64,000 nucleotides of DNA from Oceanobacter sp. (GTDB lineage Bacteria > Pseudomonadota > Gammaproteobacteria > Pseudomonadales > Oceanobacteraceae): assembly GCA_045430275.1 (NCBI GenBank), contig JAILXU010000002.1:6528-70527 (forward strand), read 5' to 3'. The notes under the pieces were generated by a model. The model did no database searches and was not told the origin of the DNA. It saw nothing but the letters and a program-made list of their open reading frames with translations. Position 1 is the stretch's first letter; every line of letters begins with the position of its first letter. A program made the position numbers and the translations under genes. This document shows, piece by piece, positions 3,825 to 56,363 of this stretch.

Positions 3825-3877
3825 ATGTCAGAACCCATAACAGTCTCACAGCCAAAGGCTATCGAGACTTTCAGGCA

Positions 3878-7246: not shown

Positions 7247-7375
7247 AACAGCTCCAGTAAAAGGGTTTCAGTCATTGAAATTCTGATTGCAGACAATCCG
7301 CCGGACGCAGGTAGCAGGGCCTCCCGGCACCACCAGCCCAATGGTTCAACAGCGGATTGTTCTGTCTGGCCCGGT

Positions 7376-26835: not shown

Positions 26836-26968
26836 TATTATTCCCTCATAAGAGTAGATGGCTCACCGTCAGCAGACATCTGCTGAACCGGTGAGCTCGT
26901 TTCTGTCCGGCCAATGGGCCGGAACGCAAAGCCGCTGACAAACCAGGTTTGTAACAGCGGTGTCAAAC

Positions 26969-28024: not shown

Positions 28025-28042
28025 GAAATGTGCCCTTGCGTA

Positions 28043-28498: not shown

Positions 28499-28560
28499 CT
28501 GCATGCCTCCGGTTATCAGTTAATTGTGTAAAAAGAAGACGTGTTTTGGCCAGATGAAGG

Positions 28561-30332: not shown

Positions 30333-30614
30333 GTCTTTATCCTTTATTAGGTAGAGGTTGATGCGCCAGAACACTGACGCTATCCATGTTCAATCACTGC
30401 CTGTCGTATTGTTACACGGGAACCGGTAGACCTGAATGCTGCCCCGCTACCCTGTAGGTAAGGGCAACAAGGGTAACAAATCAAGTGCGATTTGTGAAAA
30501 ATGCGTCACACACTGGATATTTCCGTGATTTACTGGTCGAATCTGCCTGCCTGACAACAGGCTCCAGGAACTCGCCGTACCCAGAAACGGCCACCACTAT
30601 TTTCAGGAACGTGT

Positions 30615-33635: not shown

Positions 33636-33637
33636 CC

Positions 33638-34624
33638 ATGAGCGTCTTTCGTCACGACACCGAACCCCTGTCGCCCTATCAACTGGGCGCAACCCTGTAC
33701 ATGCCCGCGACACGCACCGACATTGATCAGGTAGTTCTGAATAACAAGGTGCCCGGCTTGTCCTCGCTGGTGATTTGTCTGGAAGACGCCATTCTGGCCG
33801 AGCGCATTCCTGCCGCCATTCAGAACGTGTCGCACATTCTGACACGCATCGGGCGCGCTACTCCGACACAGGCATCGACTCGCCCGCTGGTGTTTATTCG
33901 CCCACGCCACCCCGAGATGGCACGCTGGCTAATCGAACACCTCGACCTCAATCAGGTACACGGCTTTGTATTGCCCAAATTCACCCTGGCTTCGCTGGAT
34001 GAATGGGCCACTTTGCTGGAACCCACGTCACTGTATTGGATGCCCACACTGGAAAGTGTGGAAGTGTTCGACTCGTTTGAAATGCAGCAACTGGCCAAAA
34101 CATTGGCGCAACATCCGCTGCGCGAGCGCATTCTGGCCATTCGCATTGGCGGCAACGACCTGATGAACCTGCTGTCACTGCGCCGCCAGCGCAACCTGAC
34201 GCTGTATCAGACACCGCTGGCGGCGGTGATTCAGAATCTGGTGTGTCAGTTCGCCCCACGAGACTTTTCACTCACTGCCCCGGTGTGTGAAATCATCGAC
34301 GATCCAGCCCTGCTCTCTGCCGAACTGGAGCAAGACATCGCCCACGGTCTGGTGGGCAAAACGGCGATTCATCCCAGCCAGGTTCAACGAATCAATCGCG
34401 CTCTGATGGTCAACTCTCAGGAACATCAGGACGCGCTGAACATTCTCAATGCCAGCCAGGCGGTGTTTCAGGCCCACGGGGCCATGTGCGAACCGGCGAC
34501 TCAACATCGCTGGGCCGAGCGTGTTCTGATCCGGGCCAGATACTATGGCATCAGTGATGCCGGGCCTCAGTACACAACCCCGCCCTTGCCTCAGCAACCG
34601 CCCCAAGGCGTTCTCAACTATTGA
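33638..34624 (+). CDS. Ter-associated HpcH/HpaI aldolase / citrate lyase beta family protein
   Basis: LGATLYMPATR, VICLEDAI, FIRPR, RIGGNDL, LTAPVCE, GKTAIHPSQ, MCEPATQ. Confidence 0.88.
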   Translation: MSVFRHDTEPLSPYQLGATLYMPATRTDIDQVVLNNKVPGLSSLVICLEDAILAERIPAAIQNVSHILTRIGRATPTQASTRPLVFIRPRHPEMARWLIEHLDLNQVHGFVLPKFTLASLDEWATLLEPTSLYWMPTLESVEVFDSFEMQQLAKTLAQHPLRERILAIRIGGNDLMNLLSLRRQRNLTLYQTPLAAVIQNLVCQFAPRDFSLTAPVCEIIDDPALLSAELEQDIAHGLVGKTAIHPSQVQRINRALMVNSQEHQDALNILNASQAVFQAHGAMCEPATQHRWAERVLIRARYYGISDAGPQYTTPPLPQQPPQGVLNY

Positions 34625-40884: not shown

Positions 40885-41205
40885 ATGCTGATCAGTAATA
40901 TGGAAGTCGTGCCGGGCAAGAAGATTGTCAAGCATCTGGGGCTGGTTCAAGGCAGTACCGTTCGGGCCAAGCACGCCGGGCGGGATTTCATGGCCGGACT
41001 GAAAAACATCTTCGGCGGCGAGCTGCGGGGCTATACCGAGTTGCTGACCGAATCCCGCGACGAAGCCATGGAGCGCCTACAGGAACAAGCCGAAGCCATC
41101 GGTGCCAACGCCATCGTCAATGTGCGTTTTTCCACCTCTTCCATCGCCGCCGGCGCGTCTGAAATCTTCGTGTATGGAACCGCCGTTGTTGTTGAGGAGC
41201 GCTGA
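40885..41205 (+). CDS. YbjQ/UPF0145 family protein
   Basis: LGLVQGSTVRAKHAGRDFMAGLKNIFGGELRGYTELL, GANAIVNVRF, YGTAV. Confidence 0.92.
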   Translation: MLISNMEVVPGKKIVKHLGLVQGSTVRAKHAGRDFMAGLKNIFGGELRGYTELLTESRDEAMERLQEQAEAIGANAIVNVRFSTSSIAAGASEIFVYGTAVVVEER

Positions 41206-41207
41206 TT

Positions 41208-41717
41208 ATGGGAGCTCTGATCAACCTGATTATCTTTTTAGTGCTGATGACGCTGGGCTATGTGTTTGGCCGCATGGCCGAAAACCGACATTACCGCAGC
41301 ATCCGCCAGCGTGAAGAGGAAATGCGCACGCTGCTGGTGATTCCGCAAAAGTACCCGTCGCCACAGTATGCCCGCCATCACAGCGAGCTGGTCAGTGGCA
41401 ACGTAGTGATCTCCGTCGATTACTTCAAAACCTTTGTAGCCGGTTTGCGTGGTTTCTTCGGGGGCCGAATCGGTGCCTACGAAAGCCTGCTGGATCGAGC
41501 TCGCCGGGAAGCGGTACTGCGCATGCAGGAGCAAGCCAAGGTGCTCGGTGCCGATGCGGTCTATAACCTCAAGTTCGAGACCGCTCGCATTGGCCAGAAT
41601 GCCGGGCAAGGGCTTGGCTCAGTGGAAGTCCTCGCCTACGGCACCGCCCTGCTGCCACCGCCGCCAAACAATCACAGTCCAAACGCTCACAACACCATCT
41701 CTTACCAGCAACCATGA
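41208..41717 (+). CDS. YbjQ family protein with N-terminal membrane anchor
   Basis: N-terminal TM; LVSGNVVISVDYFK, FFGGRIGAYESLLDRARREA, YGTA. Confidence 0.85.
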   Translation: MGALINLIIFLVLMTLGYVFGRMAENRHYRSIRQREEEMRTLLVIPQKYPSPQYARHHSELVSGNVVISVDYFKTFVAGLRGFFGGRIGAYESLLDRARREAVLRMQEQAKVLGADAVYNLKFETARIGQNAGQGLGSVEVLAYGTALLPPPPNNHSPNAHNTISYQQP

Positions 41718-42601
41718 CCGAACCCGAGCTGCCCAGCGCCAATCCGAAACCACCGGAGCACATCAACAATCGTTACGAGCATCCATTCAAGGACTTGCTG
41801 GTGCTGGTTGTTGGTGTGGTCGGCATTTTGGTGCTGGCTACCCTGCTGCTGAGCTGGACAGCTTCGACTCTGGCACCGCTGCTGCCTTATGAGTGGGAAG
41901 TCAGCTTGCTGCAATCCGATGCAGAGACACAAAACCTGACTCAACCTCAGGCCAGCAGTCAGATTCAGAGCCAAAACCATGACGCTATTACAACCGAACT
42001 GGCCGCTCTACTGCAGCGCGTCACAGGCCCGGATGCTCTGCCTACCCGCCTGCATTACCTGCCCGATCAGGATATACCAAACGCCTTCGCCACCCTGGGC
42101 GGCCATATTTTTGTGACGCGGGGTTTGCTGGAAAGTGTTGAATCGGAAAACGGCCTTGCCATGGTGCTGGCGCATGAATACGCCCATGTGGCATTGCGCC
42201 ACCCCATCACACTGATGATGGAACAACTGTCGATTGGCTTTGTACTGACCATGATTGGCAGCGATAACGTCGCGCAACTCATCGCTCAAAATACAGCGGC
42301 GGTAACAGCCCTGTCTTTCAGCCGGGAGATGGAACGCGCCGCTGACCGCTACGCATTGGAAGCCTTGCAATGCCATTACGGCCACACAGTTGGTGCGGAT
42401 GAGTTTTTTCTGAACATTCAGGAACAGCATCAGCCCTTCGAGAGCGACAGCCGCTGGCAGCAAATGCTGCAAACACATCCACTGACCAGCGAACGCATCG
42501 AGGTGATACGCTCCGGTGCCCGGATGGGAGAGCTGACACCGCTGCCGAAAGCGTTGCGAATCACACTCTCAACACCCGACAAGACCAGCGATATTCAATA
42601 A
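41714..42601 (+). CDS. M48 family zinc metallopeptidase
   Basis: PNAFATLGG, VLAHEYAHV, FSREMERAAD, THP. Confidence 0.88.
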   Translation: MTEPELPSANPKPPEHINNRYEHPFKDLLVLVVGVVGILVLATLLLSWTASTLAPLLPYEWEVSLLQSDAETQNLTQPQASSQIQSQNHDAITTELAALLQRVTGPDALPTRLHYLPDQDIPNAFATLGGHIFVTRGLLESVESENGLAMVLAHEYAHVALRHPITLMMEQLSIGFVLTMIGSDNVAQLIAQNTAAVTALSFSREMERAADRYALEALQCHYGHTVGADEFFLNIQEQHQPFESDSRWQQMLQTHPLTSERIEVIRSGARMGELTPLPKALRITLSTPDKTSDIQ

Positions 42602-42607: not shown

Positions 42608-43420
42608 TCAACGCACAAACGGCTGAGCCAGCAAACGATCCAGACGCGCATCCCGCAGATGTCGGAAGTATGGCAACCCCAGAATCATGCTCTCGTGGCC
42701 GTCTCGTGGCTGGGCACGATAGGTGCCGAACCAGCGATCCCAGCACGACAGGTTAAAGCCAAAGTTGCTGTTGGTTTCGTCGGTATGCCAGGAATGATGC
42801 ACTCGATGCATATCCGGTGTCACTACCAGCCAGCGCAGTTTGGCATCCAGTTGTTGGGGCAAGCGAATATTGGCGTGATTGAACATCGCCATCACATTGA
42901 GCCAGATTTCAAACACCAGCACCGCCAGTACCGGCACTCCCAACACCGTGATTACCACCGCTTTGATCAGCATCGACAGCAGGATTTCCAGCGGGTGAAA
43001 ACGCAGCCCGCTGGTCACGTCCAGATCAACATCCGCATGGTGCAAGCGATGCAAACGCCATAACAACGGCACATGATGGAACAGCCAGTGTTGCGCCCAG
43101 ATCAGGCCATCGAGCACCACCAGAGCCAATATTAATGTCATCAACGGCCACGCCGATGATAGGCCCGTCAGATGAAACAGCCCCCACTGGTACTGCTCGG
43201 CCAGTAAGGCAACCCCCACTGCCGCGCCCGGAAACAGCAGCCGCAACACCAGGCTATTAACCACCACCAGCCCCAGATTATTGAGCCAGCGATAGGATTT
43301 CGGTGCATCCAGTGGGCGTCTGGGACGATACAACTCCCAGACCACCATCACGGCGAAAATGCCAACAAAAGGCACCAGTCGCAACAGCGGTTCGTGTTCC
43401 ATCCAGGTGTTCATCAGCAA
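42608..43420 (-). CDS. Sterol desaturase / fatty acid hydroxylase family protein
   Basis: His boxes HWLFH, HRLHH, HAN, HRVHH; overlaps the arsM stop. Confidence 0.88.
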   Translation of the reverse strand: MLMNTWMEHEPLLRLVPFVGIFAVMVVWELYRPRRPLDAPKSYRWLNNLGLVVVNSLVLRLLFPGAAVGVALLAEQYQWGLFHLTGLSSAWPLMTLILALVVLDGLIWAQHWLFHHVPLLWRLHRLHHADVDLDVTSGLRFHPLEILLSMLIKAVVITVLGVPVLAVLVFEIWLNVMAMFNHANIRLPQQLDAKLRWLVVTPDMHRVHHSWHTDETNSNFGFNLSCWDRWFGTYRAQPRDGHESMILGLPYFRHLRDARLDRLLAQPFVR

Positions 43421-44445
43421 CAGGGGGCCTCGTCATCCGCGACCTTGAACGGCACTCCCGAGCCACAGCCTTCAAACGCACCAAAGTGCTGGCTGAAGTC
43501 ACCAATAAACTGGAAGTGTTCGGCAAAGCGAGTGTCGTGCAGCACCATCCAGGTGTTACCACACACTGGGAAAACCCGACCACGTTCAATGGCATGGTGC
43601 GCATCCAGATCAAAACGATCAGGCGATTGCGGCACCGTGCCCTGATAAATCACCGCCTGTCCGTAGTCTTCGCATTCGCTTTCCAGTTGATCCAGTTTGA
43701 ACAGGCGATAGGTGGCCGAGAAGAACGTCAGATTCCCAATGCGGGCCGCCAGCTTGCTGTCGGTGATTTCCAGTTGCCGATCTTCCACCAGTCGGGGATC
43801 AAGAAAGCCACTGTTGTTGGCCAGATGCAGAAAGTCGTTGTAATACAGAGCGCCACCGAGGCATTCACCATACAGCACCGGATCAAACCGCACCGCTTCC
43901 GGTACCCGCCGGTCGGCGTACACATCGGAAAAGTAAAATTCACCGCCGGGTTTCAGCAGTCGATGAACGCCGTCCAGCACAGCGGCCTTGTCGGGCGACA
44001 GGTTCACCACGCAGTTGGAGACAATGACATCAAACGATTCCGGCTCCAGATCCAGTTCGTCCAGACGCTCGATATAGCCCTTGATAAAACGCACGTTATC
44101 AAACCCGAAGGCATCGGCATGCCAGGCCTGATGCTGCTCGGCCACCGCCAACTGCTCATCGGTCATATCCACGCCGACGACTTCACCGTCCGGGCCAGCC
44201 AGTTGTGCCAGCGCGTATACATCCCGGCCAGAACCGCAGCCAAGATCGAGAATGCGCCGCCCTTCCAGTTGCGTCGGACACACCAGACCACAACCGTAAT
44301 AACGGGACAGTACCTCAGGGTGAATGCGTGACAACAAGGGTTTGAGCCATTCGGGCATGGCGCTGGCATCGCAACAGGCACTGGTTTTCAGATCGTCGCT
44401 GCCTTGCAGTTGTTTACCGTAATAATCCTGAACAATTTCATGCAT
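43414..44445 (-). CDS. arsM: As(III) S-adenosylmethionine methyltransferase, long AS3MT-like form
   Basis: KTSACC, YYGCG, LDLGCGSGRD, VSNCV, GECLGGAL (positions of the four conserved Cys), CEDYGQ, C-terminal CC. Confidence 0.85.
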   Translation of the reverse strand: MHEIVQDYYGKQLQGSDDLKTSACCDASAMPEWLKPLLSRIHPEVLSRYYGCGLVCPTQLEGRRILDLGCGSGRDVYALAQLAGPDGEVVGVDMTDEQLAVAEQHQAWHADAFGFDNVRFIKGYIERLDELDLEPESFDVIVSNCVVNLSPDKAAVLDGVHRLLKPGGEFYFSDVYADRRVPEAVRFDPVLYGECLGGALYYNDFLHLANNSGFLDPRLVEDRQLEITDSKLAARIGNLTFFSATYRLFKLDQLESECEDYGQAVIYQGTVPQSPDRFDLDAHHAIERGRVFPVCGNTWMVLHDTRFAEHFQFIGDFSQHFGAFEGCGSGVPFKVADDEAPCC

Positions 44446-44492
44446 AACGGGAGGCTCCCAGGTGAGCGTGTCGTGACCAAAGATGTCTATCA

Positions 44493-44518
44493 GTCGTCAG
44501 TCAGACCCATTTCTTACA
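44493..44518 (-). promoter_or_regulatory. Candidate ECF-sigma promoter of arsM (TGTAAGAAA-N14-GAC)
   Basis: Same motif and spacing as upstream of arsS; GAC lies 48 nt before the ATG. Confidence 0.55.
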
Positions 44519-45158
44519 GTGAATATCGGGCGCGCCAGCTTGCGGGCAGATGAATCAGATCGCCGGGTTCATCAATATCATGCAGAGCGTCCAACTCTTG
44601 CAGGCTCCAGTCCAGAGCCTCAACCCGCTGGCGCGTCAGCTCGGCAACGACGGACGTGCTCCAGGGAATGTCCTCGAACAGAGAATCATCGTATTGATGC
44701 AGCCCCAACAAGGAATAACCGCCGTCACTGACCGGCACCAGACAGGCTTCGTGCTGCTCCAATGCCTGAGCCGCCTGCTGCAAACGCTCGGCAGTCAGTC
44801 CGGGGCAATCGGTGCCCATCAGAATCACCGGCTCGCCCTGTTGCGTCACCCGCTGCACCACTCGCCCCATGCGCTGGCCAAGATCGCCTTCGCCCTGATA
44901 CGACCAGTTCAGGATTTCCGGCAAAGACAGTATTTTCCACACGGGATGATGCACCGACGGGCTGACACACAACTCAACCGGGCCAACACGAGCGGCCAGT
45001 GCCTGCTGAATGGTGTGTTGCAGCAGACGGCGCGCCAGTTGTGCCGAGCCGTCCAGCCCCAGAGCGGGAATCAGGCGGGTTTTGGCAAACCCCGGCAAAG
45101 GCGCTTTGGCAAAAATAACCACTCGGGGGCGAATCGATGTCGATGGAGAAATAGTCAT
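44514..45158 (-). CDS. TIGR04282/DUF2064-type arsenosugar-cluster transferase
   Basis: IFAKAPLPGFAKTRL, QGEGDLGQRM, MGTDCP, PVSDGGYSLLG, PWST, DIDEPGD; start placed at ATG 45158 (ATGA overlap). Confidence 0.85.
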   Translation of the reverse strand: MTISPSTSIRPRVVIFAKAPLPGFAKTRLIPALGLDGSAQLARRLLQHTIQQALAARVGPVELCVSPSVHHPVWKILSLPEILNWSYQGEGDLGQRMGRVVQRVTQQGEPVILMGTDCPGLTAERLQQAAQALEQHEACLVPVSDGGYSLLGLHQYDDSLFEDIPWSTSVVAELTRQRVEALDWSLQELDALHDIDEPGDLIHLPASWRARYSL

Positions 45159-45919
45159 ATGTAGAGCTTCGCTAACTGTTCTGCAGAAACACCGCGCCAG
45201 TACGCCCAACGCAGTCGCCACATCAAAAAAATCGTGCGCCAGACACCGTAGTCCATCCAGCGACGCCCTGACGTTGTCACCTGAGCACACAAACACTGTG
45301 GATGCTCATAGCGACGCAGGCGTTTGGACAACTCAATGTCTTCCATCAGAGGTTGATCCGGGAAGCAGCCCACCTGCTCAAAGCGGTCACGCCGCATAAA
45401 CATCGCCTGATCGCCCGTGGCAATGCCACTGAGGCGAGAACGCAGGTTGATCATAAAACCGACTACGCGCAGCATGTGGGCCGAGCCACTGACAGAGACG
45501 TCAAAACGGCCCCAACTGCCGTGCTCCAGTGCTTGCTGCAGGTGCTTTATAGCCTGTGGTGGCAAGCGGGTGTCGGCGTGCAGAAACAGCAAACATTCAC
45601 CGTAGCTGGCTTGCGCTCCGGCATTCATTTGCCGAGCACGGCCACGAGACGAATGCACCACCCGGAATCCGGCGGCTTCCGCCATACTCACCGAGGCATC
45701 CTCACTACCGCCATCCACCAGCACGATTTCAAGGGCGGGGTATTCTGCTTGCAGAGAAGACAAATGCACCAGCAACTCTGGCAGACTGCTCTGCTCGTTC
45801 AGCATCGGGACGATGACCGATAGAGATGCAGGCACAGACGACAGAACAGACACAGACGACAGAACAGACACAGACGACAGTGACCCGGCGCTAGCGGGTT
45901 TGATTAAGTTGCCAGTCAT
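45155..45919 (-). CDS. TIGR04283-type GT2 glycosyltransferase
   Basis: SVIVPMLNE, VDGGSED, GRARQMNAGA, LFLHADT, GIATGDQAMF, LMEDIELS, SGRRW; start uncertain (45919 or 45934). Confidence 0.85.
   Translation of the reverse strand: MTGNLIKPASAGSLSSVSVLSSVSVLSSVPASLSVIVPMLNEQSSLPELLVHLSSLQAEYPALEIVLVDGGSEDASVSMAEAAGFRVVHSSRGRARQMNAGAQASYGECLLFLHADTRLPPQAIKHLQQALEHGSWGRFDVSVSGSAHMLRVVGFMINLRSRLSGIATGDQAMFMRRDRFEQVGCFPDQPLMEDIELSKRLRRYEHPQCLCAQVTTSGRRWMDYGVWRTIFLMWRLRWAYWRGVSAEQLAKLYI
45833..45880. repeat. 18-bp tandem repeat x2.7 encoding (LSSVSV)n
   Basis: CACAGACGACAGAACAGA at 45833 and 45851, partial copy at 45869. Confidence 0.85.
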
Positions 45920-46727
45920 AATCCAGAAATCCAATATCCAGTTCTTCCTTCAGCAAACGCGCCTTGTCAGTGGCTGACAACCCCAGTGCATCGGCATAGT
46001 GAGCCAGAAAATCTTCCAGCCTCTGATAACCGTGCCAGCCGCGTTCAAAGTCCTGGCGATACCATTTGAAAATGGACGACACCATCAGGTCGTCACCTGT
46101 CAGCCGGTTCTGCTGACGATTGGCCAGAAACAGACGCGTTTGCTGCTCTAGCTGTTCTTTCAGGTGTGCGCCGGTATAGGCTTCGGCACGCAGTGGCGGG
46201 CAACCAATGCTGGCGCAGTTAACAGCAAAGTGAATCAGCGGGTTGTTGTAACGTCCCGAACCTCGAATCAGGTCGTGTTCGATATTATCCAGCGTCTGCT
46301 TGCTGCCCAGCAGCGGTGCCAGCGCCCGGCTCCAGGGCGAGCGCAGCCAGTTTCCCAGATCCTTGATCGACTCCAGATCCGGCCATGTGCCCAGAATCAG
46401 CTCCACCGTCCAGGCGTTGTAGGCATTGATCAGAAACGCCAATTGCTCGTCGTGTGACCAGCCATCAAACTGCGCCTGTTTAACCGCCGCCAGATCATCC
46501 AGATAGCGCTTCAGCACCTGCCGCTGATCGGCCACGCCCTGATAATTCACGGCGGTGGATTGGCCACCGTCATCAGACACCACGTTGGCCTGCAACAAGC
46601 GATTCCAGGCGCTGTGGTCAAACGCTTCTGCTGCCCCAGATTCTCTTACCCCTTCGGCCAGAGAAGCAGAACACCACAAACACAGTGCCAGCATCAGGCT
46701 GCTGTAACTCTTATGCTTAGTGAGCAT
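45891..46727 (-). CDS. Exported DUF547 domain protein
   Basis: Signal peptide; LAFLINAYNAWT, LDNIEH, IHFAVNCASIGCP, SSIFKWY, YDWQLN; start placed at ATG 46727. Confidence 0.88.
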   Translation of the reverse strand: MLTKHKSYSSLMLALCLWCSASLAEGVRESGAAEAFDHSAWNRLLQANVVSDDGGQSTAVNYQGVADQRQVLKRYLDDLAAVKQAQFDGWSHDEQLAFLINAYNAWTVELILGTWPDLESIKDLGNWLRSPWSRALAPLLGSKQTLDNIEHDLIRGSGRYNNPLIHFAVNCASIGCPPLRAEAYTGAHLKEQLEQQTRLFLANRQQNRLTGDDLMVSSIFKWYRQDFERGWHGYQRLEDFLAHYADALGLSATDKARLLKEELDIGFLDYDWQLNQTR

Positions 46728-48897
46728 CGCCGCGTCTCCAACTGTGGTATTTTTCCAGCCAGCCCAGAATGCGCTCGGGCGCATGAGCACGCTTCCACTC
46801 GCCCGCCGCGTATTTGTTGGCTTCGGCCCAGGTCGGATAGGCATGAATGGTGCCGAGTATCTTGTTCAGGCCAAGGCCGTGTTTCATCGCCAGCACGAAC
46901 TCAGCCATCAGATCACCGCCGTGTTCGCCCACAATGGTGACGCCCAGAATCCGATCCTTGCCCGGTGTGGTCAGCACCTTGACGAAACCGTGCGCCGCAC
47001 CGTCGGTGATAGCACGATCCAGATCATCCAGACCGTAACGTGTGACTTCGTATTCAATCCCCTGGGCCTGTGCGTCCTGTTCATTCAGACCCACACGGGC
47101 AATTTCCGGGTCAAGGAAGGTCGTCCAGGGAATCACCCGGTAATCCACCTTGAATTTTTTCACGTGACCAAACAGCGCATTGACCGCCACGTACCAGGCC
47201 TGATGCGCTGCCACGTGGGTGAACTGGTATGGCCCAGCCACATCACCCGCGGCGTAAATATTCGGATACAGGGTTTCCAGATACTCGTTGGTGACGATGG
47301 TGCGATTGGTTTCAATCCCCAGTTCTTCCAGACCGTAGCCTTGCAAGCGTGCTTCCCGCCCGACGGCACAGAGTAACTGGTCGAATTCAATCGCCTGTTC
47401 CGTCGCCGGGTCTGATGAACCGGATGGCATCACTATCAAACGCTTGTTGCCGGTCTCGGCATCGAGTTCGCAACGCACCGCCTGATGGCCGGTCATCAAG
47501 CTCACACCATCGCGGCTCAGTGATGCCGCTGCCAGTTCGGAGACTTCTTTATCTTCACGGGCCAGCACCCGTGCTCCCCGCTCCACCTGAGTGACCTGCG
47601 AACCCAGTCGGGCAAAGCTCTGGGACAACTCACAGCCAATCGGGCCGCCGCCGAGCACCACCAGGCGCTTCGGCGCGTCGTCCAGTTCGGCAAAGGTTTC
47701 CCACAAGGTGTCACTGGTGACGTAGCCGGTGTCTTCGATACCCGGCAGTGGTGGTACAAACGGTCTGGCTCCGGTGGCCAGCACAATCGAACGCGTGGTC
47801 AAACGCTGCACGCCACCGTCATTCAGGTGAATTTCCACCGTCCACGGGTCAATCACCCGCGCGTAGCCTTGCAGCACTTCCACGCCCAGATTGGTGTAAC
47901 GCTCCACGCTGTCGTGAGGCTCAATCGCCTTGATCACGTCATGCACTCGCGCCATCACCTTGCGGAAGGAAAAACGCGCCGGTTGCGATTCCAGCCCGTA
48001 ATGATCTGCATGCTGCATCTGGTGCGCGACCCGAGCGCTTTTGATCAGCGCCTTGCTCGGCACACAGCCGTAATTCAGACAATCGCCGCCCATTTTGTTG
48101 GACTCGATCAGCGTGACTTTGGCTTTTACCGCCGCCGCAATGTAAGCGCTCACCAGACCACCAGCACCGCCGCCAATCACCACCAGATTACGATCAAACT
48201 GCTTCGGCCTCGTGTGTTTGGCGTACACCCGGCGCGCCTTGATCACCGACAGAATTTTTTTGGCGATCAGCGGGAAAATGCCCAGCAGCGCGAACGACAA
48301 CAGCAGCGACGGTGACAGGATGCCCGACAGACTGTCGAGCTGAGCCAACTGGGTTCCGGCATTCACGTACACCAGCGTGCCTGCCAGCATCCCAACCTGA
48401 CTGACCCAGTAGAAGGTCGCGGCCCTGATTGGCGTCAGTCCCATCAGCAAATTAATCAGAAAGAACGGGAACACCGGCACCAGACGCAGCGTGAACAGAT
48501 AGAAGGCACCGTCTTTTTCGATCCCGTCGTTCACCGCCTGCAAACGATCACCAAAGCGCTTCTGCACGCTATCGCGCATCAGATAACGCGACGCCATAAA
48601 CGCCAGCGTTGCGCCAATCGAACTGGCAAAAGACACCAGTACCGTTCCCCAGGCCAGTCCAAACAAGGCACCCGCCGCGATGGTCATAACCGCTGCACCG
48701 GGCAGTGAAAGTGCTGTCACCAACACATACAACAACAGAAACAGACCACCCGTCAGTAACGGTGCGGCACTGCGCTGGGCTTCAAAATCCGCCAATCCCT
48801 GTTTCAATCCATCCAGGGTCAACAGCAGATGCACATCCAGTGCAAAAAAAGCCACGATGGCGACGCCAATCGCAAGCAGTAAGGCAATTTTTTTCAT
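46717..48897 (-). CDS. TVP38/TMEM64 (VTT/DedA) membrane domain fused to a class I pyridine nucleotide-disulfide oxidoreductase
   Basis: SLPGAAV and LRLVPVFPFFLIN; then GGGAGG, GGDCLNYGCVPSK, GGGPIGCE, AAGDV, HAYPT. Confidence 0.9.
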   Translation of the reverse strand: MKKIALLLAIGVAIVAFFALDVHLLLTLDGLKQGLADFEAQRSAAPLLTGGLFLLLYVLVTALSLPGAAVMTIAAGALFGLAWGTVLVSFASSIGATLAFMASRYLMRDSVQKRFGDRLQAVNDGIEKDGAFYLFTLRLVPVFPFFLINLLMGLTPIRAATFYWVSQVGMLAGTLVYVNAGTQLAQLDSLSGILSPSLLLSFALLGIFPLIAKKILSVIKARRVYAKHTRPKQFDRNLVVIGGGAGGLVSAYIAAAVKAKVTLIESNKMGGDCLNYGCVPSKALIKSARVAHQMQHADHYGLESQPARFSFRKVMARVHDVIKAIEPHDSVERYTNLGVEVLQGYARVIDPWTVEIHLNDGGVQRLTTRSIVLATGARPFVPPLPGIEDTGYVTSDTLWETFAELDDAPKRLVVLGGGPIGCELSQSFARLGSQVTQVERGARVLAREDKEVSELAAASLSRDGVSLMTGHQAVRCELDAETGNKRLIVMPSGSSDPATEQAIEFDQLLCAVGREARLQGYGLEELGIETNRTIVTNEYLETLYPNIYAAGDVAGPYQFTHVAAHQAWYVAVNALFGHVKKFKVDYRVIPWTTFLDPEIARVGLNEQDAQAQGIEYEVTRYGLDDLDRAITDGAAHGFVKVLTTPGKDRILGVTIVGEHGGDLMAEFVLAMKHGLGLNKILGTIHAYPTWAEANKYAAGEWKRAHAPERILGWLEKYHSWRRGDAH

Positions 48898-48929
48898 TAT
48901 TCAGACTCCATCCAAGACTCGATTTGAAA

Positions 48930-49880
48930 TCACAGAGCACCGCCACAACTGCTGCCCTGGCCCGCCGTACAGCCATAACAATGACCCGCCACAGCGACCG
49001 GACAGGTGTTCACATCACTTTCCAGCAGGTCTTGCAGATGCCGTTTGCCAGCACCCAGTGGTATCTCCAGTTGCTGGTTGAAATCGCAGTCGTACAAGCG
49101 CCCCTGCCAATCCACACTGACCAGCGAACGACACATCACCTGTTCCAGATTGTCGACCTGATAGCTGTCGCGCAGCAGTTGCATATAGTCCTGAAACTGG
49201 CCTTTGGAAATCAGCGTGGAGCCAAAACGCTTGATCGGCATATTGGCAAGTGCAAACAGATGGTTGAATTCGATATTGAAGTGCTGGCGCAGCTCGCGGC
49301 GATAGTCGGCTTCCAGTTGTTGCTGGTTGGGTGGCAGTGAGGGGCCTTGCGGGTTGTACACCAGATTCAGCGACAAACCGCTGTCAGGCTGGCCATACCC
49401 CAACGCATTAAGCGCCTGCAAACCGGCAATGCTCTTGTCGAAGACGCCCTGGCCGCGCTGCTTGTCGACGTTATCGAGGGAATAACAGGGCAGCGAGGCC
49501 ACCACATCCACACGGTGGTGAGCGAGAAATTCTGCTAAACCCTCCTGCTCTGGTTCAAACAGAATCGTCAGGTTACAACGGTCAATCACCTGCACGCCTG
49601 CTTCCGTGGCCTGCTCCACCAGATAGCGGAAATCCGGGTGCATTTCTGGTGCGCCGCCGGTCAAATCGAGCGTTTTGATCTGGCGTGCTTTCAACACCGG
49701 CACAATCAAATCCAGCGTTTCCCGGCTCATCATTTCGGTACGATGAGGCCCGGCATTGACGTGACAATGCAAACAGCGCTGATTGCACTGATAGCCCAGA
49801 TTGACTTGCAAGGTGTCCAACGGCTGACGCTGCAATGCCGGAAAATCCGTTACTTCCAGCAAGGGTAAAGTGGCGTGCAT
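48930..49880 (-). CDS. arsS: Arsenosugar biosynthesis radical SAM protein
   Basis: LQVNLGYQCNQRCLHCHV, LTGGAPE, DRCNL, LNLVYNP, VMCR, YDCDFNQ, HCYGCTAGQGSSCGGAL. Confidence 0.9.
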   Translation of the reverse strand: MHATLPLLEVTDFPALQRQPLDTLQVNLGYQCNQRCLHCHVNAGPHRTEMMSRETLDLIVPVLKARQIKTLDLTGGAPEMHPDFRYLVEQATEAGVQVIDRCNLTILFEPEQEGLAEFLAHHRVDVVASLPCYSLDNVDKQRGQGVFDKSIAGLQALNALGYGQPDSGLSLNLVYNPQGPSLPPNQQQLEADYRRELRQHFNIEFNHLFALANMPIKRFGSTLISKGQFQDYMQLLRDSYQVDNLEQVMCRSLVSVDWQGRLYDCDFNQQLEIPLGAGKRHLQDLLESDVNTCPVAVAGHCYGCTAGQGSSCGGAL

Positions 49881-49924
49881 AAAGAGGCTCCGGCTAGCGA
49901 CGATTCATCGGGAATATTCCCTTT

Positions 49925-49950
49925 GTCTGACAATAGCCGGGTTTCTTACA
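49925..49950 (-). promoter_or_regulatory. Candidate ECF-sigma promoter of the arsS operon (TGTAAGAAA-N14-GAC)
   Basis: Same motif and spacing as upstream of arsM; GAC lies 45 nt before the ATG. Confidence 0.55.
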
Positions 49951-49973
49951 CTTCAGAGGTGTTTTTTTTCAGG

Positions 49974-51464
49974 TTATTGCTTTGGGTGGCGCAGCAATTG
50001 TTCCACTAACAATCCCAATGTTTGCATCGCCCGATGAGTTTGATCATTCCAGGGATGAGCAATATTCAACCGAATACAGTGATCAAACTGATCGCTGTTA
50101 CTGAACAACCCGCCTGGCACGACTGAAATAGAGCGCTCACGGGCCAGATAATACAGCCGCTCGGCACTGACTGAACGAGGCAATGCCAGCCACATGGTGT
50201 AACCGCCTTTGGGCGTACTGAAACGCGTTTCATCCGGGAAATACTGTTCAATAGCGCCCACAAACTGCGGCAGATTACTGGCCAGTTGACGGCGCAATTG
50301 CCGCAAATGACGGTCGTAGTGACTGTTTTCCAGATACGAATGCACCACCCGCTGTGACAGACTGGAAGAAGAAAACGTAGTGAAGGTTTGCTGATCAATC
50401 ACCTGCTGATACCAGCGCCCCGGCACACACCAGCCAACCCGCAGCCCGGCGGCCAGCGTCTTGGAAAACGACGAGCAGTACATCACCCGACCATCACGAT
50501 CAAACGCCTTGATGGCCGAATAACTGCCATCCGTCTGGGCCTGTTTGCGCGCCGCTGCTGACGTTTCTGCAAAACTGATCTCGCCGTAAATATCGTCTTC
50601 GATGATGCCAACGTCGTACTGCTGGGCCAGCTCGACCAGTTGCTTCTGTTTGGCGGTGGGCATCAGCGCTCCGGTCGGGTTGGAAAAACGCGCTGTCAAA
50701 GCAATCAGACGCACGGGCCACTGGCTCAGCGCCAGTTGCAGCGCTTCCACACTCATGCCGGTTTCCGGGTCGGTGGGAATCTCGATCACCTTCAGCCCCA
50801 TCATGCTGGCCAGTTGCAGAAAGCCGTAATAGCAGGGCGATTCCACCGCCACCAGATCTCCCGGTTTGGTCGCAGCCCTAAGACACAGGGTAATGGCCTC
50901 GGCGCAGCCATTACTGATGATGATGTCGTCACTGACGCAATGAATCCCCGCGTTGCTCATGCGCACCGCCAACTGTTGCCGCAGGCCTTCAAAGCCCGGC
51001 GCAAACTGGTACTCCAGCACCTGCCTCAACTGAAACCGGCTGGTTTGCTGGATATGTCTCTGCAACTGTCGTTGTGGCAACAGGCTTGAATCCGGGATGG
51101 CGGCACCGAAATTCACCAGACTGGGGCGACTCAATTGCGCCAGCATGTTGCTGATCAGCGCCGACTTAGTCACTTCCGACGGCTGTTCTTCCGGACGAGA
51201 CAGAGGCAACTGGGCACGGCGATACTCGGGCCGCCGATTGGAGCACACGTAGTAACCCGACTGAGGCCGGGCACTCAGCCAGCCCTGATCTTCCAATCGG
51301 GCATACGCCTGCGAAACCGTCGAGACACTGACGCCCCGCAACGTGCTCATACGGCGCACACTCGGGACTTTCTGACCGACCGGATACACACCGGCCTGAA
51401 TATCAGCGCTGAGCTGATCGGCCAGTTGCAGATACAAGGGATGTTTCAGTTGTGGATTCAGCAT
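49974..51464 (-). CDS. MocR-family regulator (GntR HTH plus PLP aminotransferase-like domain)
   Basis: LYLQLA, PSVRRM, VSVSTVSQAY, ARPQSGYYV, IEDDIYGE, SSFSKTLAAGLRVGW; start placed at ATG 51464. Confidence 0.92.
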   Translation of the reverse strand: MLNPQLKHPLYLQLADQLSADIQAGVYPVGQKVPSVRRMSTLRGVSVSTVSQAYARLEDQGWLSARPQSGYYVCSNRRPEYRRAQLPLSRPEEQPSEVTKSALISNMLAQLSRPSLVNFGAAIPDSSLLPQRQLQRHIQQTSRFQLRQVLEYQFAPGFEGLRQQLAVRMSNAGIHCVSDDIIISNGCAEAITLCLRAATKPGDLVAVESPCYYGFLQLASMMGLKVIEIPTDPETGMSVEALQLALSQWPVRLIALTARFSNPTGALMPTAKQKQLVELAQQYDVGIIEDDIYGEISFAETSAAARKQAQTDGSYSAIKAFDRDGRVMYCSSFSKTLAAGLRVGWCVPGRWYQQVIDQQTFTTFSSSSLSQRVVHSYLENSHYDRHLRQLRRQLASNLPQFVGAIEQYFPDETRFSTPKGGYTMWLALPRSVSAERLYYLARERSISVVPGGLFSNSDQFDHCIRLNIAHPWNDQTHRAMQTLGLLVEQLLRHPKQ

Positions 51465-51523
51465 GGCTCTCGACGCTCCGTTACGCACACCCGAAAGCTT
51501 ACTCTTCGCTACCACACAGCAAC

Positions 51524-52644: not shown

Positions 52645-52745
52645 TATTGTTCTGTCACCTGTTTCCTTTATGATCAGCATGGTTTTGAACCAGCTCAGCC
52701 ATGCTGGCCTTATTTGACTCTGTTCATGGAATACAAGGAATTGTG

Positions 52746-55700
52746 ATGGAACAACACTACTCCACATCTTCAATATTTAAAAAATCCCTGCTGGCTGCCG
52801 CCATCGGTACCACGATTGCACTGACAGGCTGTAGCGGTAACAGCAGCAGTGATGATGACAAGAAAGCTTCTGAAGCCAGCGTCTCACTCAGTGGTTACGC
52901 CATCAAGGGTGTGATGATCAATGCCAATATCAAGGTCTATGATCTGGCAACCAATACACTGCTGAAAGAAACCACCACGGATGCACAGGGGCAATATTCC
53001 CTCTCTGACATTACCGTTGAAAGCGAAACCGTCGGTGCCCTCAAGGTGGTGATGACCACCAACACTAACACCACCACCAAATGCGACTCCGCCATTGGCT
53101 GCAGCGATGGCAGCGGCAATGATGTCTCGTTCGGCCAGACCTATGCCTTCCATGATCCCGGCTTTCAATTAACAGCAATTCTGGCTGATCCCAAAGACGC
53201 CACCAGCGCCTCATTGATGGTGACACCACTGACCCATATGTCAGCCGCTCGTATCGAAAAAGAAGGCGTCCTGACCAACGAAGCCATCAGTACGGTTAAT
53301 CGTGAAACGGCTGCCCTGATGGGTCTTGGCAATGTCAACATTGCCACCTTGCAGCCGGTTGATCTGGCCAGCCCGAACAGTGCAACAGCAGACGGTAATG
53401 CCGTTAAATACGGTGCCATGCTGGCTGCCGTTGCGACCGTGGCCAAGGAAAAAGGCCTGTCACTGCAGGATATGGTTCAGCAGCTGTCTGACAACTACGC
53501 CAACAGCAAGGGGCTGAAGTCTCACTCCAGCAACGATCAGGAAACCGACCTGGCAGACTTGTTTGCCGCTGCGGTCGAGTCACTTAATACAGCAGAAAGC
53601 ACGTTCAACATTGACATCGATAACACCGCAGAAGTAGTCATGATGTCAAAACGCAACGATGCCGCTAATGCCACGGTCGATGATGTCACCGTGATCGACA
53701 GCAGCAACACTGGCGAAGTTGATCCAACCCTGACACCACAAGAGCAAGCCACGTTAAAGGGCATGGCGCTGCTGGAAGACCTGAACACATGGAATGACAC
53801 CCAACTGGACATTCGTTCCCAACTGTTGGCTGAAGATGGCGAACTGGCCCAATACGCCAACGATCTGGATATGATCGCCACAGCTGTACAGGAACAAACC
53901 GATCTTGCCCGTGCCTTCAGCACCCTGGCTTACGGATTCACAGAGCAGGAAGTGGTTGAAACAGAAACCCATTGCTCCCAGTGGCATTACGGGACTTGCC
54001 AACAATGGAAAGAATACGAATATTCATGGACGGAAGAACAGCAGAGCGGCATTCTGGCAGGCGTTCCTAATCTGATTCGGGAATTTGCCTACCTGACCAA
54101 CCGGATTGAAGGCAATCACGCTAAACTGGAAGCCACCTTCGACAGTGAGACACAGCGCTACACGCTGACGCTGGATGCCCAGCTGGTCGCCCAATACTGG
54201 GATGAAGAATACTTTGCCGAATCCTACGGCTTTATCTACGGCTATGCTGGTGCCGATATCGATAACACCGGTGTACTGAACATCAGCTACGCCATGAACG
54301 ACGAAGACGAGATCACCGATATTCGTTTCAGTGGCACCTCCGGCTACCCGGAAGATGGCAAGGCCATTGATCTTCAAGCCCTTCAGATGCAACCAACCCT
54401 GTCCCTGGATGATGCGCACTACGCGGTCACCATCTCCCAACTGAGCCTGAACGACACCACAACCACCAGCTTGTTGAACAAGGAACTGGAAGTTGGCATC
54501 AGCTACACCGCGACGGGTGAACTGAGCATGGAGTTTGCCGATCTTGAAAGTATGGCAGAGACCCTGTTCTTTATGGGCGATGGCAGCAGCGGGCTATTGA
54601 ACATGACTCTGACTCTGGATTCCGAAGTTTCAGAGAGCGTTGAAGACGCTGCGGCTGGTGGCTTCTCCCCAGCATCCGGTGAGCTGGACGTGAATGTATC
54701 ATTCAAGCGTGAGTCACTTGAGGCTGAAGCCACGGCTGCAATGACAGCGAAAGTGGATGTCCGTAACAGTAACGGGGACTTTATTACCGGTCAGCTGACA
54801 GGTTCTGGTCAGGCTTCATCCCCGACCAAAGAAAACATCACGGCAGGTGTGAACCTCAGTTTTACCGGCAGCCTATCACAAGGTGTACACGATGCTGATC
54901 ACGCCTTGAATGGTGCCAGCACTCGCTTCGACGGTACGCTGACACTGGATGTTCCTGATATCCAAAACGATCAACTCAGTACCTATACGACCACCTTCGA
55001 TGGCGAATTGAGTGTGCAGGATGCTGCGGGAACCGGTGCTGCTTTTGATGGCAACGCCAAACTGGCGATGGAACACCCCAAAACAGCAAGCGGTCGTCCC
55101 CTCTACTCCGAAAGAGCGAGAAACTACATTGATTATTACTGGTTTAATACAGAGATAGAGACAACCACAGAGGCAACCATTCCAACCGAAGTGGCTCTGA
55201 CTGGCAAACTAACCGCTAGCCGTGAGAATACCACCAAGGCAGAACTGGATATCAAGGCCAGTCTGATGCTGGATAATCTGGCTCCCGTTGTTGAACGCCT
55301 GAACCAGGGCGAAATCAGCGTTGGACATGAGATTGGTACGCCATCCAGCCTGATTGGTGGTGATGCGACCTTGCATGAGCAGGATAATCGCATCACCTTT
55401 GAACCGCGCCGGTATGCAGAAGAAGATCTGATCACCTTGGCAAGCGCATACTCTCAAACACTGGGTTTAACCAATGCACGCTACTTTACCCGCCAATGGG
55501 TTCAAGACGCGGTTTCCGAACTTTCTGTTAATGCCTCAAGTTGCACACCGGATGATGGTGTCTACTTTTGTGCTTTGAATATCACAGAAACCAGCTATTT
55601 GTATTCCAGCCGCAATGCCGAGCCTAAAATTCCGAGGGTTTTCAAAAAACTGCAAAGCATCTCATTTACCACCAGTGAATTTAATGCCGGTGACCATCGT

Positions 55701-56363
55701 TCACCGGCCAAATGGCAAGCCAAAGCCATCGCTGCAGCGGATGAAGATGTGTGGTTATATCGCTCCGTTGCTATTGAATCTGACCAGGGATATGTCTGGT
55801 CAGCAAGCGATGGTGACAGCCTCAATGACGATACCATTCAGCCAATACAAGTCCGGGACTATCAGCTGGTTGATGGCCTTACTGAGACCATTGCCAGCGG
55901 TGAAACCGCTGACAGCTATGTCGGCATTGCAGCCAGCCTTGAAATTGCACTGGATGCCTTTGACTATGAAGATGCATCCATTCAGCTGGTCACCGATCGT
56001 ACCGGCCAGCAAGGTATAGATGGCCAACTGACGTTGAAGTACGGTGATCGTAGCATCGACATGGTATTAATCCTTGAAGATAACCAGCTGGATACCAGCA
56101 AAACAGCTCTTACGATCAGCAACAACGATACCGAGATGAAACTGACCGCTGAATGTATTGATCTGGCTTCCGAAAAACAGACCACAATGAGTGCTCTGTC
56201 CAAGTGTGACAATGACGATCTGAACTTCGGTGGCACCATCACGGTGGATGGCCTTGAAATTGGCAAACTGGAAGACCGCAATGGTCTGCCGGTCTTTGTC
56301 TTTGGCGATGATACCGAGTATCAAATGATCGCAACTCCCGCTTTCCTGATTTCACGTCAGTAA
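52746..56363 (+). CDS. Very large acidic surface lipoprotein of unknown function
   Basis: KKSLLAAAIGTTIALTG-C lipobox, Ser-rich tether, SGYAIKG...NANIKVYD start of first domain; ~1200 aa open frame followed by a terminator. Confidence 0.8.
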   Translation: MEQHYSTSSIFKKSLLAAAIGTTIALTGCSGNSSSDDDKKASEASVSLSGYAIKGVMINANIKVYDLATNTLLKETTTDAQGQYSLSDITVESETVGALKVVMTTNTNTTTKCDSAIGCSDGSGNDVSFGQTYAFHDPGFQLTAILADPKDATSASLMVTPLTHMSAARIEKEGVLTNEAISTVNRETAALMGLGNVNIATLQPVDLASPNSATADGNAVKYGAMLAAVATVAKEKGLSLQDMVQQLSDNYANSKGLKSHSSNDQETDLADLFAAAVESLNTAESTFNIDIDNTAEVVMMSKRNDAANATVDDVTVIDSSNTGEVDPTLTPQEQATLKGMALLEDLNTWNDTQLDIRSQLLAEDGELAQYANDLDMIATAVQEQTDLARAFSTLAYGFTEQEVVETETHCSQWHYGTCQQWKEYEYSWTEEQQSGILAGVPNLIREFAYLTNRIEGNHAKLEATFDSETQRYTLTLDAQLVAQYWDEEYFAESYGFIYGYAGADIDNTGVLNISYAMNDEDEITDIRFSGTSGYPEDGKAIDLQALQMQPTLSLDDAHYAVTISQLSLNDTTTTSLLNKELEVGISYTATGELSMEFADLESMAETLFFMGDGSSGLLNMTLTLDSEVSESVEDAAAGGFSPASGELDVNVSFKRESLEAEATAAMTAKVDVRNSNGDFITGQLTGSGQASSPTKENITAGVNLSFTGSLSQGVHDADHALNGASTRFDGTLTLDVPDIQNDQLSTYTTTFDGELSVQDAAGTGAAFDGNAKLAMEHPKTASGRPLYSERARNYIDYYWFNTEIETTTEATIPTEVALTGKLTASRENTTKAELDIKASLMLDNLAPVVERLNQGEISVGHEIGTPSSLIGGDATLHEQDNRITFEPRRYAEEDLITLASAYSQTLGLTNARYFTRQWVQDAVSELSVNASSCTPDDGVYFCALNITETSYLYSSRNAEPKIPRVFKKLQSISFTTSEFNAGDHRSPAKWQAKAIAAADEDVWLYRSVAIESDQGYVWSASDGDSLNDDTIQPIQVRDYQLVDGLTETIASGETADSYVGIAASLEIALDAFDYEDASIQLVTDRTGQQGIDGQLTLKYGDRSIDMVLILEDNQLDTSKTALTISNNDTEMKLTAECIDLASEKQTTMSALSKCDNDDLNFGGTITVDGLEIGKLEDRNGLPVFVFGDDTEYQMIATPAFLISRQ

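Follow-up and report, generated by a model that had tools for sequence, protein, structure and literature searches.

We analyzed a gene array around arsS in a 64-kb window of Oceanobacter sp. DNA (contig JAILXU010000002.1; all coordinates below are positions in this window), where seven open reading frames (ORFs) run head to tail on the minus strand from 42608 to 49880. Profile searches and a reading of the junctions give the 5′-to-3′ order arsS, a VTT/DedA-disulfide reductase fusion, DUF547, a TIGR04283 family 2 glycosyltransferase (GT2), TIGR04282, arsM, and FA_hydroxylase. A preliminary description of this DNA had named the same seven minus-strand genes, calling the last one a desaturase or hydroxylase, and the profile matches bear these identities out. 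Start codons were fixed from the gene calls of homologs in close relatives together with direct reading of the sequence, which places the ATG codons of DUF547, GT2, TIGR04282, and the hydroxylase at 46727, 45919, 45158, and 43414, respectively. From the promoter-proximal end, the array consists of the following features:

49881–49973, minus strand: region upstream of arsS, 93 nucleotides (nt), the sole candidate operon promoter region, from sequence reading
48930–49880, minus strand: arsS, radical SAM enzyme (TIGR04167, Radical_SAM, DUF3641); 32-nt gap to the next gene
46717–48897, minus strand: VTT/DedA-disulfide reductase fusion, 726 amino acids (aa) (VTT_dom, Pyr_redox_2, Pyr_redox_dim); 11-nt overlap with the next gene
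45891–46727 (uncorrected ORF to 46844), minus strand: DUF547 exported protein, 278 aa (PF04784); ~29-nt overlap with the next gene
45155–45919 (uncorrected ORF to 45934), minus strand: TIGR04283 GT2; 4-nt overlap with the next gene, ATGA, read directly
44514–45158 (uncorrected ORF to 45296), minus strand: TIGR04282/DUF2064 protein, 214 aa; 68-nt gap to the next gene
43414–44445, minus strand: arsM, by match to solved ArsM structures; 1-nt overlap with the next gene, TGATG, read directly
42608–43414 (uncorrected ORF to 43420), minus strand: FA_hydroxylase, 268 aa (PF04116)

Stop and start codons had been described as mostly overlapping, and indeed four of the six junctions overlap, the remaining two being gaps of 32 and 68 nt. 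At the last junction, the hydroxylase gene is translationally coupled to arsM. Consensus scans revealed no convincing internal promoter or terminator in the operon (two promoter-like sites compared to 3.5 expected, and 15 terminator-like sites, all intragenic, compared to 9.6 expected, counts that are uninformative), and an Rfam scan of 41–53 kb at an E value of ≤0.1 returned neither an RNA element nor a riboswitch. Given these overlaps and short gaps, the array reads as a single operon, and cotranscription of all seven genes is predicted. Neither a match to the σ70 consensus nor an Rfam element was found in the 93-nt region 5′ of arsS. In a congener (L191; GT2 84% identical), represented by a Logan contig, the seven genes, their flanks, and the 1-nt arsM/hydroxylase overlap are the same. 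The exact ArsS sequence had no database record, and the closest relatives are ∼84 to 96% identical at the protein level. The full seven-gene set was seen only in the window, in this congener, and in one GTDB representative (L011).

Predicted enzymes of the operon

ArsS matches the TIGR04167 equivalog model over residues 16 to 316 of 316 (474 bits; cut-off, 300), and it also matches Radical_SAM and, at 193 bits, DUF3641. The cluster motif CNQRCLHC (CX3CX2C) is present, and the translation ends in a cysteine-containing C terminus (...GQGSSCGGAL). The protein falls within TIGR04167 and is predicted to add a 5′-deoxyadenosyl group to dimethylarsenite, the adenosylation carried out by characterized ArsS enzymes. 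ArsM, in turn, gives full-length alignments with solved ArsM structures (5evj, 3.5e-101, residues 4 to 329; CmArsM 4fr0/4fs8, 4e-87), and its motifs SACC, YGCG, SNCV, and GECL fall on identical positions of 5evj. These motifs contribute four conserved cysteines, which we take to be the arsenic-binding residues, as in CmArsM. On this basis, ArsM is a predicted As(III) S-adenosylmethionine methyltransferase homolog.

Both central transferases score above the cut-offs of their families, the GT2 with 277 bits for TIGR04283 (cut-off, 182) and the TIGR04282 protein with 205 bits (cut-off, 134). The latter also matches DUF2064 and, weakly, CofC and NTP_transf_3, and its relatives in the PDB are 3cgx, a "putative nucleotide-diphospho-sugar transferase" (6e-19), and the CofC homolog 2i5e. 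Its predicted fold thus resembles a CofC/MobA-like nucleotidyltransferase rather than a classical glycosyltransferase, which is why the label "glycosyltransferase" fits TIGR04282 poorly. TIGR04283 appears in public databases as [quoted passage not shown] formerly "rSAM/selenodomain-associated transferase 2." The AlphaFold2 (AF2) model of the window GT2 (predicted local distance difference test [pLDDT], 90) is of a generic GT-A type, with WrtF, PcManGT, ArnC, TarS, and GtrB at template modeling (TM) scores of 0.5 to 0.6, and the top sequence matches among solved structures are weak ones to ArnC, GtrB, and DPMS (2e-8 to 3e-4). The N-terminal leader of the GT2 contains an 18-nt tandem repeat at 45829–45880 on the minus strand (2.9 copies, encoding [SVSVLS]n; Tandem Repeats Finder score of 97 with 97% matches); this leader is disordered in the model (pLDDT < 50), and close relatives vary in length there (254, 248, and 237 aa).

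The second gene encodes a fusion of a VTT/DedA membrane domain (residues ∼69 to 182; VTT_dom, 84.7 bits) with a class I flavoprotein disulfide reductase (residues ∼237 to 700; Pyr_redox_2, 205 bits; Pyr_redox_dim, 100 bits). The closest solved relatives of the reductase domain are MerA (5x1y, 7e-73) and lipoamide dehydrogenases, and the redox disulfide CLNYGC (CXXXXC) is present. We rejected an identity as MerA, since the protein reaches 357 bits against a TIGR02053 cut-off of 454 and its C terminus (...WRRGDAH) lacks the MerA-type cysteine pair; without these C-terminal cysteines, the reductase is not a mercuric reductase. In published work, DedA proteins are known or proposed flippases for lipids or undecaprenyl phosphate, and a pyridine nucleotide-disulfide oxidoreductase is the most common fusion partner of the COG0398-type members, for which no function is given and which one published note ties solely to aerobic metabolism.

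The DUF547 protein (PF04784, 88.7 bits) begins with a signal-peptide-like N terminus, MLTKHKSYSSLMLALCLWCSASLAEG, and is predicted to be exported, as had been proposed. Its motif NCASIGCP (CX4C; C171 and C176) and a nearby histidine are invariant across 56 homologs. The AF2 model is of good quality (pLDDT, 91; predicted TM score, 0.85), and a Foldseek comparison of this fold with the PDB found no relative, the best match having an E value of 2.8 and a TM score below 0.25. The DUF547 family itself is large, with more than 7,500 members at an E value of ≤1e-10.

The last gene product matches PF04116 with 92 bits (gathering threshold, 31), and its histidine boxes H109/H113, H122/H125/H126, and H203/H206/H207 are invariant in 12 homologs; a sequence search of the PDB gave no match. 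From these features, it is predicted to be a membrane di-iron hydroxylase or desaturase of the FA_hydroxylase superfamily. OlsE, the ornithine-lipid hydroxylase, represents the nearest curated family, with a near full-length alignment and the same character of a membrane di-iron enzyme with histidine boxes. We rejected OlsE orthology, the score being 83.5 bits against an equivalog cut-off of 475, and hydroxylases of the window type have VTT/DedA, rhodanese, ArsR, and ars-cassette genes as partners instead of ornithine-lipid synthases.

Conservation of the arsS cassette and linkage of the hydroxylase

At least 592 species representatives encode a relative of ArsS, and among these we surveyed the best 80 loci, 53 of them with full flanks. 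The best 80 relatives are 67 to 80% identical and belong to Gamma- and Betaproteobacteria, with hosts such as Cellvibrionales, Microbulbifer, Halieaceae, Marinobacterium, Oceanimonas, Polaromonas, Rhodoferax, Thauera, and Gallionella. At the 53 full-flank loci, TIGR04283 is present in 42, TIGR04282 in 39, the VTT-reductase in 38 (plus a stand-alone VTT gene in 5), arsM in 21, DUF547 in 11, and the hydroxylase in 5. The order arsS, VTT-reductase, (DUF547), TIGR04283, TIGR04282, (arsM) is conserved across both classes. Five of the seven families recur around arsS in most of the related genomes checked, with the hydroxylase as an occasional but clearly nonrandom addition.

Accessory genes around arsS in these genomes provide further clues. 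Fourteen of the 80 loci have a gene for a methylthioadenosine (MTA) phosphorylase (MtnP; TIGR01694, 320 bits compared to a cut-off of 275) near arsS, mostly adjacent to it, and four, all in Aeromonadales, have one for a methylthioribose (MTR) kinase (MtnK; TIGR01767, 429 bits compared to 275). A step of either kind would yield a 5-substituted ribose-1-phosphate from the ArsS product, a natural substrate for a nucleotidyltransferase such as TIGR04282, with TIGR04283 acting next. Transporters of the PstS/PstB/PstCA or PiT type are found in ∼15 of the 80 loci and a weak Trx-type ArsC-like gene 3′ of arsM in three, and together these recurrent neighbors tie the cassette to arsenate and phosphate. 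Other recurrent neighbors are the TIGR03169 "N-terminal to SelD" oxidoreductase (12/80), an extracytoplasmic function (ECF) sigma factor (13/80), DUF3047 (7/80), and an AhpD-like protein (6/80). Examples of such accessory genes, in our locus numbering, are L014:9064-9963, L042:8628-9848, L063:8409-9554, and L011:17165-17698.

The subfamily of the hydroxylase (51 to 59% identical) is found in at least 599 species, and its best 80 loci were examined by an alignment-based scan, which replaced an earlier exact-word scan with a single protein that had given only 26 loci. The hydroxylase lies within 10 kb of arsS at 6 of the 80 arsS loci; conversely, ArsS, TIGR04282, TIGR04283, or ArsM is encoded within 10 kb of the hydroxylase in ∼11 of its 80 loci (∼14%). 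As a control, the M48, MocR, and EamA genes flanking the operon in the window were found in at most 2 of 106 loci (∼1%), as weak matches. The hosts of cassette-linked hydroxylases include SUP05 Thioglobus, Thioalkalivibrio, and Novosphingobium, and in a neighbor-joining tree, the linked proteins fall into at least eight separate clades. Gene orders differ between these clades, which speaks against a single arrangement having simply been inherited. The hydroxylase gene of Oceanimonas and Oceanisphaera comes directly after that of TIGR04282, and no VTT gene is nearby. The hydroxylase is thus a facultative but nonrandom partner of the cassette, an accessory and not a defining member.

The preliminary description had made the desaturase part of the cassette and had named rare linkage to arsS or arsM in other genomes as a point that would tell against the proposed pathway. 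The membership holds for the congener and recurs in at least eight clades, and it does not extend to the bulk of the arsS loci. Since the gene is present in 5 of 53 loci and yet recurs so broadly, the survey neither bears out rare linkage nor fully dispels it.

Beyond the cassette, the general partner of the hydroxylase is, as far as gene neighborhoods and fusions indicate, a VTT protein. Among 92 hydroxylase loci, a gene with a VTT domain lies within 3 kb at 17, usually 40 to 150 nt downstream on the same strand and mostly of the VTT-plus-rhodanese type, and a divergent regulator with ArsR helix-turn-helix (HTH) and rhodanese domains is encoded at 16; disulfide reductases, DsrE, and ArsM-like methyltransferases are further neighbors. 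The hydroxylase-linked VTT domains are 35 to 44% identical to that of the window fusion protein, fusions of PF04116 to PF09335, usually with rhodanese PF00581, make up at least 17 protein clusters of independent origin, and variant cassettes with hydroxylase, VTT-rhodanese, arsS, TIGR04283, and TIGR04282, in this order, occur at L134, L181, and L132. In light of this coupling, the window operon appears to join an arsenosugar module (arsM, arsS, TIGR04282, and TIGR04283), a membrane module (VTT-reductase and hydroxylase), and DUF547.

A widespread three-gene module came to light in the same survey, in which an ArsR-HTH-plus-rhodanese gene (loop CRGPYC) faces a "sterol desaturase" gene that is followed by a VTT/DedA-plus-rhodanese gene (loop CRTD[RK]RS). 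It is present at L108, L125, L140, L167, L169, L179, and other loci (for example, L125:230-919 and L179:8668-9645) and is sometimes joined by DsrE, disulfide reductase, or ArsM-like genes. Desaturase, VTT, and rhodanese domains also occur as a single fusion protein of ∼600 aa (e.g., P0121 to P0125). Our literature search found no description of this module.

A proposed arsenosugar route and its alternatives

On balance, we think it slightly better than an even bet that this operon, a member of a widespread proteobacterial arsS cassette, makes a conjugate of a 5-deoxy-5-dimethylarsinoyl-riboside, that is, of an arsenosugar, at the inner membrane. In such a route, (i) ArsM would methylate As(III) to dimethylarsenite, as its homology and conserved cysteines suggest; (ii) ArsS, placed in its family by hidden Markov model score, would add a 5′-deoxyadenosyl radical to give dimethylarsinoyl-adenosine, the activity of the characterized enzymes; (iii) an MTA phosphorylase, or a nucleosidase with an MTR kinase, of the kind found next to arsS elsewhere, could remove adenine to leave the ribose-1-phosphate; (iv) TIGR04282, with its nucleotidyltransferase fold, could activate this to a nucleoside diphosphate sugar; (v) the TIGR04283 GT2 may transfer this sugar, with a membrane lipid or polyprenyl phosphate as the probable acceptor; (vi) the VTT/DedA domain may flip or present the lipid-linked product, and the fused disulfide reductase may provide thiol-based reduction, for example, in As(V)/As(III) cycling; (vii) the hydroxylase, together with the VTT protein, could oxidatively modify the lipid part; and (viii), more speculatively, the exported DUF547 protein with its invariant CX4C motif might bind or act on the product in the periplasm. 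The first two steps lean on characterized homologs; the three steps from adenine removal to glycosyl transfer are suggested by folds and by neighbors in other genomes; and domain families and fusions hint at the remaining ones (flipping and thiol reduction, hydroxylation, and the periplasmic step).

The preliminary description had also proposed a lipid-linked or cell surface product. We find a lipid-linked product plausible, and better grounded than before, in view of the VTT/DedA domain, the predicted membrane di-iron hydroxylase, and the hydroxylase-VTT fusions, while neither the GT2 fold nor the DUF547 structure gave a lead in this direction.

Several observations weigh against the proposed route. 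The literature searched reports no organoarsenical for any proteobacterial cassette. The window, searched for MtnP, MtnK, PiT, Pst, DUF3047, ECF sigma, AhpD-like, and TIGR03169 genes, had none of them linked to the cluster, so that the accessory genes which suggest adenine removal elsewhere (MTA phosphorylase and MTR kinase) are missing here, as are a phosphate transporter and an ArsC-like gene. ArsM lies below all NCBIfam ArsM cut-offs (PRK11873, 168 compared to 263; AsSugarArsM, 89 compared to 400; arsinothricin ArsM models, 142 compared to 500 and 73 compared to 240 bits) and, given its full-length match to solved structures, belongs to a distinct subfamily. The GT2 fold search favors no lipid-phosphate acceptor over others, Foldseek ranking WrtF and PcManGT above ArnC and GtrB. 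At ∼90% of arsS loci there is no hydroxylase gene, and its subfamily is mostly encoded away from cassette genes. Finally, the rhodanese, DsrE, and TIGR03169 neighbors point to a sulfur or selenium chemistry that the arsenosugar model leaves unexplained.

The alternative that survives best, a possibility that we take seriously while holding it to be on the unlikely side, is that the cassette makes a water-soluble arsenosugar or another small organoarsenical for detoxification or export, with the VTT protein as exporter and the hydroxylase as unrelated lipid housekeeping. It would account for the many arsS loci without the hydroxylase, for the lack of arsM at ∼60% of them, for the hydroxylase subfamily members that stand alone or with other partners, and for a GT2 fold search that did not reveal the acceptor type; the known cyanobacterial oxo-arsenosugars, according to the literature, are water soluble. 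It fits less well with a hydroxylase that is translationally coupled to arsM in both the window and the congener, that is linked to the cassette in at least eight clades, that directly follows TIGR04282 in Oceanimonas and Oceanisphaera where no VTT gene is nearby, and that is tied by the hydroxylase-VTT fusions to the cassette's own membrane component. Nor were resistance or efflux genes found nearby: E. coli-type ArsR, ArsB, and ArsC have no match anywhere in the window (tblastn E > 0.2), the ∼50 scanned window ORFs contain no ars-family Pfam domain and no SBF-type match (no dedicated Acr3 query was made), and the combination of arsR and arsB or acr3 with arsC nearby that marks a classical ars resistance operon was not found in the window. 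This agrees with the preliminary description, which had noted no arsR, arsC, arsB, or acr3 nearby and had proposed a biosynthetic rather than a detoxification locus; the locus is of a biosynthetic arsS/arsM type, and the cassette is found in noncyanobacterial hosts of the Gamma- and Betaproteobacteria.

A bolder version of the lipid idea, which we consider rather improbable, is that the FA_hydroxylase and VTT/DedA proteins, the latter fused to rhodanese or disulfide reductase, form a new membrane machine that would turn an arsenoriboside into a modified arsenolipid placed in the outer leaflet, often under an ArsR-rhodanese regulator. If this were true, common heterotrophic Proteobacteria of marine and fresh waters would make arsenolipids on purpose and not merely detoxify arsenic, possibly in step with phosphate/arsenate uptake, for which the cassettes with Pst or PiT genes would be equipped.

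Less likely still is that the cassette acts mainly on sulfur, selenium, or tellurium species, or on another 5′-deoxyadenosyl-derived sugar, and that its "arsenosugar" names were overtransferred from cyanobacteria. The original family name refers to selenodomain-associated transferases, the ArsS family includes selenoproteins, TIGR03169 is encoded at 12 of the 80 arsS loci, the hydroxylase-VTT module has rhodanese, DsrE, and ArsR-rhodanese genes around it, the window ArsM misses the curated cut-offs, and a tellurite-type Ter cluster lies 8 kb away in a window in which our searches found no ars resistance genes. On the other hand, ArsS scores far above its equivalog cut-off; the alignment of ArsM with solved As(III) methyltransferases spans the whole protein and includes the four motifs of the presumed arsenic-binding cysteines; and the cassette repeatedly comes with phosphate/arsenate transporters and an ArsC-like gene. 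The MTA phosphorylase and MTR kinase neighbors do not discriminate here, because they fit any 5′-substituted adenosine. What keeps this explanation alive is the combination of rhodanese, DsrE, and TIGR03169 neighbors with the selenoprotein history of the family and with the fact that there is no measured product.

That the hydroxylase stands beside arsM by chance, functionally unconnected, is very unlikely: although L011 is the sole GTDB representative with all seven genes and the subfamily, in at least 599 species, is mostly encoded elsewhere in the genome, the gene overlaps arsM by 1 nt, the arrangement is kept at ∼84% protein identity, ∼14% of hydroxylase loci carry cassette genes compared to ∼1% for the flank-gene controls, and gene orders vary between clades.

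The first two enzymes of the arsenosugar route that we favor have a precedent in Synechocystis, where an As(III) S-adenosylmethionine methyltransferase (ArsM) is paired with a TIGR04167 enzyme (ArsS) that forms 5′-deoxy-5′-dimethylarsinoyl-adenosine. Compared to the cyanobacterial pathway, the window host is a noncyanobacterial gammaproteobacterium, five further genes are packed into the operon, and ArsM belongs to another subfamily, as its score for the arsenosugar-ArsM model indicates, and is closest to algal ArsM structures. The cassette is already known by annotation: TIGR04167, TIGR04282, and TIGR04283 are all above their cut-offs here and in their usual order, and database names exist, the biochemistry being unfinished; these NCBIfam/TIGRFAM names leave out three members of the operon, the VTT-disulfide reductase, DUF547, and the hydroxylase. 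Like the ArnC/ArnEF/ArnT and GtrB/GtrA/GtrC systems, the operon combines a small GT2, a membrane protein of the flippase type, and an exported component, with the differences that (i) the GT2 likeness is to generic GT-A proteins, WrtF and PcManGT coming first by fold; (ii) the candidate flippase, a DedA/VTT domain, has a flavoprotein reductase as its fusion partner; and (iii) the exported protein is DUF547 and not a GT-C enzyme. The fusion protein shares its domain architecture with the published COG0398-type DedA-disulfide oxidoreductase fusions, to which our survey adds a regular place in the arsS cassette (38/53 loci). The arsinothricin cluster arsQML also pairs a radical SAM enzyme forming a C-As bond with ArsM, but this enzyme, ArsL, is of a different family and transfers a 3-amino-3-carboxypropyl group, and arsQML has no sugar-handling genes.

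In marine food webs, organic arsenic occurs mainly as arsenosugars and arsenolipids. In the literature searched, only the first two arsenosugar biosynthetic enzymes are assigned; after the ArsS step, it is stated merely that adenine "can then be removed," with no enzymes named for this or later steps, in line with the preliminary description, which had called the later steps unassigned. Nor did our search find an account of the proteobacterial cassette, the hydroxylase-VTT fusion, the hydroxylase-bearing variant, the MTA phosphorylase clue, or a product. The comparative data offer a candidate order of reactions, namely, phosphorolysis, nucleotidyl activation, and glycosyl transfer, and the relatives of the operon are found in heterotrophs that can be cultured and are amenable to genetics (Microbulbifer, Marinobacterium, Oceanimonas, Pseudomaricurvus, and Herminiimonas), where the missing steps could be tested gene by gene. 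The comparisons also provide a first functional context for three orphan groups, the DedA-disulfide reductase fusions, DUF547, and a "sterol desaturase" subfamily of at least 599 species. Should the product be a lipid, heterotrophic bacteria would be an unrecognized source of arsenolipids.

The wider window

By Pfam, the other ORFs scanned in the window have functions unrelated to arsenic resistance: Na+/H+ exchangers, an asparaginase, YbjQ proteins, an M48 peptidase, an ABC amino acid transporter, a two-component system, the Ter cluster, and ATP-grasp/transglutaminase genes. Immediately upstream lie a MocR-like regulator (49974–51515) and a divergent EamA gene, which we considered as cassette members and rejected: they are kept with the cluster in close relatives only and are absent from the 80 arsS loci, and for these reasons they are not counted in the cassette. 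On the other side, at 40885–42601 on the plus strand, two YbjQ-family ("putative heavy-metal-binding") genes and an M48 peptidase gene converge on the hydroxylase gene, with 6 nt between the outer stop-codon ends, an arrangement that the congener shares.

A second metalloid-related system, a Ter-type tellurite/stress cluster, spans 26257–34624, ∼8 kb from the ars cluster:

26257–26835, minus strand: TerD
26969–28024, minus strand: TerC
28043–28504, minus strand: TerB
28561–29745, minus strand: TerD-domain protein, 394 aa
29745–30374, minus strand: TerD
30615–31745, plus strand, facing the Ter genes: PRTase_2 plus TRSP
31738–32562, plus strand, facing the Ter genes: ORF without a Pfam match
32559–33635, plus strand, facing the Ter genes: StiP plus PELOTA_1
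33638–34624, plus strand, facing the Ter genes: C-C_Bond_Lyase

Elsewhere, the minus strand at 239–9999 encodes two consecutive sets of transglutaminase-like, circularly permuted ATP-grasp, Alpha-E, and DUF2126 "amidoligase" genes. Two very large ORFs have no Pfam match at 1e-5, one at 52701–56363 (1,220 aa, plus strand) and one at 58519–61437 (972 aa, minus strand), and the counterpart of the latter in the congener has a Tricorn_N match.

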